From: Catajapyx aquilonaris
Taxonomy: Eukaryota
DNA: 20,000 bases
Direction of reading: 5' to 3'
Assembly (NCBI GenBank): GCA_000934665.2
Contig: JYFJ02002621.1
Coordinates: 49,727-69,726 of the forward strand
Shown here piece after piece: positions 1,231 to 1,400 of this stretch (positions within the stretch are counted from its first letter, which is position 1; every line of letters begins with the position of its first letter). The translations under genes were made by a program, and so were the position numbers. The notes beneath the pieces are model-generated. The model was not told where the DNA came from, made no database searches, and was given only the letters and a program-made list of their open reading frames with translations.

Positions 1231-1400
1231 GTGCGGTACTTCGTGCCAGAAGAGCATTAGAAGATGTAATTGGCTTCAGAGCTGACCACCCATTTTTGTT
1301 TGCCTTAACACAAAAACATCCTCTGAGCGCACTATTGTTTGTGGGAGCTTTGATAAAGCCAACCTCTGAACCTGTTGTATCACTGCATGAAGAATTATGA
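1231..1400 (+). CDS. Serpin 1 alternative RCL terminal exon A (furin/proprotein-convertase-type bait RARR-A, C-terminal HEEL)
   Basis: gcttctgtag acceptor, phase 1; (G)AVLRARRALEDVIGFRADHPFLFALTQKHPLSALLFVGALIKPTSEPVVSLHEEL*. Serpin signature FRADHPFLF...LLFVG...P. Confidence 0.92.

Follow-up and report, generated by a model that had tools for sequence, protein, structure and literature searches.

The DNA analysed here is a stretch of 20,000 nucleotides (the window), in which bases 695-3440 of the forward strand are the 3' portion of an animal serpin gene. This gene is probably of the inhibitory type and carries six tandem alternative 3' cassettes, A to F. The first of these, cassette A, pairs the bait R-A-R-R/A with a C-terminal tail ending in HEEL. 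Our preferred reading, to which we give a probability of about 0.6 on the basis of the sequence and of analogy, is that the A-isoform would be an inhibitor of proprotein convertases that is retrieved to the ER, following the design of Drosophila Spn4A. Cassette A is thus probably a further example of a known serpin design.

Organization of the locus

The window takes in only the last ~155 positions of the serpin profile (Pfam PF00079). They begin with a constant exon at 695-883 on the forward strand (GKKVEM...SLEQ), which is in phase 0 at both ends and matches Pfam Serpin positions 216-282 (E 4.3e-09), followed on the same strand by a second constant exon at 963-1101 (positions 283-328, E 4.9e-15) that carries strand s5A, the hinge and the first base of a Gly codon. 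The 5' exons of the gene lie upstream of the window. A contig of the run that we call X1 covers 695 and reaches 835 nt further upstream, and its loose end places a further exon upstream of 695; with X1 read as RNA (see below), the N-terminus is thus represented in transcripts. The donor at 1101 (CAG/GTAAGC, within CAACAG/GTAAGC) is common to all cassettes. The shared hinge fits 9 of the 10 positions of the hinge pattern given in PMC2770083, P14 being an Ala that falls outside the strict pattern. Of the 121 serpins retrieved, at least 20 have an identical hinge. In alpha1-antitrypsin numbering (P1 = M358), the cassette intron at 1101/1102 would presumably be 352a, behind the first base of codon 352, and the intron at 883/884 would be 305c, behind codon 305. 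Position 352a is listed among the introns of the vertebrate neuroserpin/PAI-1 group V3 (PMC2556349, PMC4476131).

All six cassettes share one plan. Each is preceded by a pyrimidine tract and AG and opens with two bases that complete the Gly codon; then come about 17-21 variable residues, (A/G)-(D/N)-H-P-F, L/I-F/Y-x-G/A...P and the cassette's own stop. Each encodes the loop from the post-hinge Gly together with strands s1C, s4B and s5B. All lie on the forward strand. Cassette A, (G)AVLRARR/AL...FRADHPF...KP with a 12-residue tail ending in HEEL, occupies 1231-1400 and matches Pfam Serpin positions 337-370. Cassette B (GLVMVGFARPS...SPK, then the stop) lies at 1531-1673 (E 7.8e-08) and cassette C (GVVITNKMMVLP...KPSTN) at 1952-2091 (E 1.4e-06), with a donor at 2094/2095 just past its stop. 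Cassette D (GISFEFLVDIPVP...PPDVST) was placed at 2222-2358 by its acceptor and open reading frame (E 0.0039), cassette E (GIVIEAVAYYPPQ...TPSSM) lies at 2876-3009 (E 3.7e-05), and cassette F (GISMMRSLQEE...GNHPF...RPQS) was placed at 3304-3440 from the sequence. The Pfam Serpin matches of A to E fall within profile positions 336-370; F has no Pfam match at E<=1 and can be aligned with the other cassettes. Short direct repeats, which match at 90% over 21 nt between A and B and at 73% over 80 nt between D and E, show that tandem duplication gave rise to the cassettes.

A seventh, decayed cassette at 2560-2660, with an acceptor-like cag/GT and an open frame, was considered and rejected; it has neither a Pfam match nor A-D-H-P-F. 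The surrounding bases 2525-2674 form a 150-nt inverted repeat, with arms at 2525-2554/2645-2674 and 2552-2581/2594-2623, of which the right-hand arm (2625-2675) matches a different X1 contig with 7 mismatches. This is probably a small dispersed repeat element. A search for docking-site and selector RNA pairings, of the kind used in mutually exclusive splicing, returned scattered complements of 11-16 nt, none of them recurring upstream of each cassette; by a rough estimate, complements of this length are about what a 2.2-kb AT-rich stretch yields by chance.

Transcription and splicing of the cassettes

X1 is the sole run covering the locus, and represents one sample of unknown tissue whose kind is unrecorded. 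We read it as RNA because its joints are GT..AG in four cases out of four and two of them use one donor. The joint 883/963 (GT..AG) connects the two constant exons, in a contig covering 695-881. Two further joints leave the hinge exon, 1101/1531 for cassette B and 1101/2876 for cassette E, and the last one, 2094/2876 (GT..AG), runs from a donor three bases past the stop of C to the acceptor of E. The gene is expressed, and the shared donor and two of the cassette acceptors (B and E) are real. One contig is unspliced from the acceptor of B through C, and another is unspliced from 2874 via E and F to ~3760, adjoining an AATAAA at 3753-3758. The cassettes therefore act as alternative acceptors inside one long 3' region and, since B-transcripts read through C and E-transcripts through F, the downstream cassettes form the 3' UTR of the upstream ones.

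The joint 1101/1231, which would connect the hinge exon to A, is absent from the X1 joints; the three bins over 1182-1472 have depth 0, and the contigs span A. Likewise, no joint from the hinge exon to cassette D occurs among the X1 joints. Contigs drop rare forms, so that X1 speaks to the presence of a splice form and not to its absence. Neither AATAAA nor ATTAAA occurs in the interval from the stop of A to cassette B, and A-transcripts would therefore have to run on or to splice further. Elsewhere, one or other of these hexamers is found at 1669, 1897, 2379 and 3062.

The bait and the tail of cassette A

The intron that would bring the hinge exon to cassette A (1102-1230, forward strand) is contained in the longer introns 1102-1530 and 1102-2875 observed in X1, and its own removal is predicted from sequence. 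It ends in the pyrimidine-rich acceptor ttgcttctgtag/GT, which is as good as the acceptors of B and E, and exon 963-1101 joins A in phase 1, completing the Gly codon. Translation of 1233-1400 gives AVLRARRALEDV...PTSEPVVSLHEEL and a stop, with 56 open codons. The first-pass annotation had placed the R-A-R-R codons at 1242-1253, which the sequence and its translation bear out to the base, and had reported H-E-E-L (1386-1397) followed by the stop, which is the TGA at 1398-1400; its count of 18 residues from the first Glu of the hinge to the last Arg, both included, is right as well. It had further described A as the only exon with an extended tail, and A does carry 12 residues beyond the last conserved Pro, versus 1, 3, 4 and 3 in B to E and 2 in F.

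Cassette A also retains what a serpin end needs. It matches Pfam Serpin (PF00079) with E 0.00098 and 18.9 bits, a score below the 27-bit cut-off for the whole protein, as expected for a 55-residue piece, and in the ESM Atlas it resembles a serpin end. The serpin motifs F-R-A-D-H-P-F and L-F-x-G...K-P are kept; F15, P20 and F21 are invariant in an alignment of 8 rows, and all fold-critical residues are intact in A. The pairing of bait and tail exceeds what chance would produce. An ER signal of the form [KRHQSA][DENQ]EL precedes just one of the 2134 stop codons in its six frames, namely the HEEL of A, and R-x-[KR]-R is found at 13 of 39996 positions. With the register fixed, the cassette's own stop required and 7 candidate cassettes allowed for, the joint expectation of the two is ~5e-7 (200 shuffles).

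HEEL fits the PROSITE motif for ER residence, [KRHQSA]-[DENQ]-E-L, and has precedents as an address. A human protein ending in HEEL is placed in the ER in Table I of Raykhel et al. 2007 (PMC2140024), and HEEL is called a canonical retrieval signal of FKBPs by Gerondopoulos et al. (PMC8248988). Among serpins, Kumar and Ragg 2008 (PMC2556349) describe Spu-Spn-1 from a sea urchin, with T-M-T-K-R/S and HEEL, and the lancelet Spn-1, with N-M-M-K-R/S and KDEL, the latter being an inhibitor of proprotein convertases.

Comparison with Drosophila Spn42Da

The closest counterpart of this arrangement that we compared is Drosophila melanogaster Spn42Da (Spn4), whose isoforms A/B are Spn4A and for which we used PDB chain 4p0f, the cleaved protein (also 4p0o), reading ...ATGMAVRRKRAIM...SSEHDE. 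Past the hinge Gly, residues 4-7 are R-A-R-R in the window and R-R-K-R in 4p0f, with the following Ala in the same column (ATG-MAV-RRKR-A in 4p0f versus ATG-AVL-RARR-A in the window), so that the common register proposed in the first-pass annotation is sound. By the usual serpin count there are 17 residues, P17 to P1. In Spn42Da the hinge Gly of E-E-G is P16, which makes the loop one residue longer than that count, and the same holds here. The mapped positions in Spn42Da are P4-P1 for R-R-K-R, with P1 at R342 and the cut before Ala, and the constant hinge is given as N324-T334, with the variably spliced region starting from G335 (PMC4006314).

The likeness extends to the architecture of the gene. 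In both cases a single serpin core is followed by a series of alternative loop cassettes beginning at the post-hinge Gly (G335 in Spn42Da), one of which has R-x-[KR]-R at P4-P1, then Ala, and an extension of the C-terminus that finishes with a sequence of the H-x-E-L type. In Drosophilids the furin cassette (exon 5) leads the array, as A does here, and it is reported as the sole cassette kept in all 12 Drosophilid species (PMC2770083). There are also clear differences. The bait and tail are R-A-R-R and HEEL here, as compared with R-R-K-R and HDEL in Spn42Da; nine residues separate P1 from A-D-H-P-F here and twelve in Spn42Da; the cassettes number six as against four; and the identity between the two serpins is low. 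In bait, register, tail and cassette architecture, the sequence of cassette A would nevertheless place it in the Spn4A-type class.

What such a cassette may do is suggested by the fly protein. Spn4A inhibits furin (Ki 13 pM) and PC2, and its HDEL keeps it inside the cell, removal of the signal leading to secretion (PMC3252376). Spn42Da loops are made both with and without a signal peptide, through an alternative 5' exon (PMC4006314). The suggestion of the first-pass annotation that exon choice switches both target class and subcellular location needs to be narrowed on this account, in that the switch of location would apply only to signal-peptide transcripts, given that the Drosophila cassettes also join a 5' exon without signal peptide.

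Based on this analogy, a possible sequence of events can be proposed. Splicing of the hinge exon to A on a signal-peptide transcript would send the serpin into the ER, where a convertase of the furin/kexin type would cut after the last Arg of R-A-R-R/A and, on insertion of the loop into sheet A, be held as a trapped acyl-enzyme. The KDEL receptor would read the HEEL tail and return the isoform from the Golgi to the ER, so that it would guard the early secretory pathway, and the choice of B to F would provide other baits without this address. What is observed directly comprises the sequence features with their register, the cassette array and the splicing to B and E; in the use of A, the signal peptide that would bring it into the ER, the protease targeted and the bond cleaved, the model would follow the example of Spn4A and its kin.

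Relatives and orthology

The collections searched yielded no close relative of cassette A. A word-indexed search of longer proteins returned none among 1077 candidates, and the constant exon 680-885 had no relatives among 39 candidates. In a HMMER search of 1.84 billion representative proteins (E<=0.001), cassette A had 7 matches, one of which (P0002) is a serpin. The six others (P0003-P0008) were rejected as spurious, since they match only through the R-A-D-H-P words of their repeats. These are proteins of 535-736 residues made of ~40-residue units with ...ALEV-x-TRADHP-x-WA-x-TQNNL..., and short serpin-end queries attract repeat proteins of this kind.

P0002 is a gene model that strings six loop cassettes together, and by eye its N-terminus is hydrophobic and signal-like. 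Its first cassette reads MSV-RLKR-S... with the tail ...PAYSAHDE, in the same register as in the window and with the same nine residues from P1 to A-D-H-P-F. Cassette A aligns with it end to end at 19/53 identical residues (36%) and 29.3 bits, but another P0002 cassette comes close, with 28.1 bits, and orthology of the cassettes is therefore a tentative suggestion. A search with the hinge exon gave 2224 matches; the best 120 include no close relative, the highest identity among them being 77% over 46 residues. One of them, P0013 (from Tenebrio molitor according to NCBI), has R-M-T-R in the same register and ends in HNEL. In a pattern scan of the other 119 of these best 120 matches, no sequence ended in an ER-type signal or had R-x-[KR]-R beyond the hinge. 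Spn42Da, P0002, P0013 and the window thus all combine an ER tail with a basic bait at residues 4-7 past the Gly.

The first-pass annotation had gone further and called cassette A the conserved Spn42Da/SRPN10-type isoform, which exceeds the evidence. The best relative of the cassette stands at the 19/53 given above; for the spliced fragment of 165 residues, identity to the best 25 of 127 proteins retrieved is 42-51% in the aligned parts; and Anopheles SRPN10 has been described as a protein that moves between the nucleus and the cytoplasm (PMC2698913). SRPN10 does resemble the present gene in having alternative loops, four isoforms in its case, and the literature treats it as a homologue of Spn4. 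It differs in being nucleo-cytoplasmic and not of an ER-resident design, a comparison made from the published description. In Kumar 2015 (PMC4476131), Spn4 is treated as homologous to Anopheles Spn10, and the author leans to neuroserpin orthology. Kumar and Ragg point out that Spn4-like features are possibly convergent, since loop exons recombine (PMC2556349).

Other serpin systems share parts of the design. Spu-Spn-1 and the lancelet Spn-1 also combine a basic pair before the scissile bond with an ER signal, and the tail of Spu-Spn-1 is HEEL as in A. They differ from the present gene in having a single loop, with no cassette array and no Arg at P4; moreover the serpin core of Spu-Spn-1 is intronless, and the only introns of the lancelet Spn-1 are 75c and 174a. 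The R-R and HEEL of cassette A correspond to the basic pair and C-terminal secretory address by which the neuroserpin lineage is recognized, a lineage also marked by a head-to-head PDCD10 gene and a two-residue indel after position 173 in alpha1-antitrypsin numbering (PMC2556349). The insect serpin-1 genes of Manduca sexta and Bombyx mori and PpSerpin-1 of Pteromalus have mutually exclusive loop cassettes on one core as well (PMC2770083, PMC10513286). As general background, genes of this type place a common last exon after the cassettes, and their products are secreted haemolymph inhibitors of S1 proteases; we know of no ER tail in serpins of this type.

Alternative explanations

The paired arginines of cassette A could also belong to an inhibitor of Arg-specific trypsin-fold (S1) proteases, cut at R-A-R/R or after either Arg, with the furin pattern being incidental. 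On the usual P17-P1 count, the third residue of R-A-R-R would be P1. Many of the relatives retrieved have a single Arg at the canonical place (for example ...GAVMMMRS...), and vertebrate neuroserpin, of the same lineage according to PMC2556349, targets tPA by means of one P1 Arg. The full R-x-R-R, however, coincides with the P4-P1 positions mapped by experiment in Spn42Da, an ER tail would make little sense in an inhibitor of extracellular S1 proteases, and the pairing of bait and tail recurs in P0002 and P0013. We therefore regard an S1 target as quite improbable. The location of the product can be questioned in a similar way, since A may be used on transcripts without a signal peptide and would then give an Arg-directed serpin of the cytosol or nucleus, whose HEEL would go unseen by the KDEL receptor. 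Spn42Da does make each loop with and without a signal peptide, SRPN10, which is regarded as its homologue, is nucleo-cytoplasmic, and the constant part of the present gene is nearest in PDB to intracellular clade-B serpins (Serpin B3/B4, E 2.3e-11). Nevertheless, it is hard to see what a 12-residue extension with an ER signal would do in the cytosol, none of the other five cassettes has one, and P0002, which has the same pairing, begins with the signal-like segment noted above; we consider this explanation very unlikely.

It could be argued, on the other hand, that cassette A has no product at all, and is an intact-looking duplicate that is silent or nearly so and now skipped by splicing. X1 leaves A with neither cover nor a junction while the junctions of B and E are present, A lacks a poly(A) signal of its own before B, and no relatives were found that would show constraint. 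We hold this to be unlikely: the 56 codons are open, the acceptor is good, the fold-critical residues and both motifs are intact (at the joint expectation of ~5e-7), and a single sample of unknown tissue cannot establish the absence of A. An inhibitor of proprotein convertases retrieved to the ER is the reading that we retain for the A-isoform.

Significance and evolution

Serpins that police prematurely active convertases in the early secretory pathway are on record for Drosophila (Spn4A) and for lancelets, and their presence in sea urchins and sea anemones is inferred; whether they represent one ancient lineage or repeated inventions is treated as unsettled (PMC2556349). The locus adds a case in which a single exon choice could switch both the bait and the cellular address, and it adds an R-x-R-R/HEEL variant. 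Should its host not be an arthropod, it would also inform the question of one lineage or several. The design itself will not surprise a serpin specialist. It may provide a further natural scaffold of the Spn4A type, Spn4A having been used as a tool against enzymes of the furin family (PMC3252376). In the collections searched, the gene had no relative closer than about 50% identity, and the window may thus derive from a thinly sampled animal lineage. A more speculative proposal, which we consider doubtful, is that the host lies outside the arthropods, in which case the complete Spn4 design, with an array at the post-hinge Gly and a first cassette combining R-x-[KR]-R with an H-x-E-L tail, would be ancestral to bilaterians and not an insect invention. 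If true, and given the HEEL of Spu-Spn-1, this would tie Spn4 to the neuroserpin lineage, a link that Kumar and Ragg left open in view of possible convergence.

Other features of the window

No Rfam families and no tRNA genes (ARAGORN) were found in the window, whose G+C content is 40.5%. The downstream neighbours of the cassette gene are a second serpin gene and a FAM120-like gene. The second serpin gene (10228-13075, forward strand) looks complete, with five coding blocks and pieces of Pfam Serpin over positions 9-370, and no start Met is visible in its first block. It has a single loop (...SEEGTVAAAATGVYIIPLTGF...AERPF), with hinge and loop in one exon; it is without the cassette-switch intron of the first gene and keeps the intron corresponding to 883/963. 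On the reverse strand, 17437-18714 is an ORF of 426 codons (MGVKGLQTF...) that resembles FAM120, or "constitutive coactivator of PPAR-gamma-like", of the asteroid/XPG type (Atlas score 0.97), with a weak match to Pfam XPG_I (E 0.00078) that is below the cut-off; this FAM120-like ORF is not PDCD10, which would be expected on the 5' side of a gene of the neuroserpin lineage. An interspersed repeat is present at 5493-5627 and 14456-14583 in opposite orientations, the complementarity being 88% over 76 nt and 79% over 61 nt. Finally, there is an element of ~630 bp at 8008-8639 with terminal inverted repeats of 106 nt, a (CT)n run at 4305-4328 and a single N at 11095.
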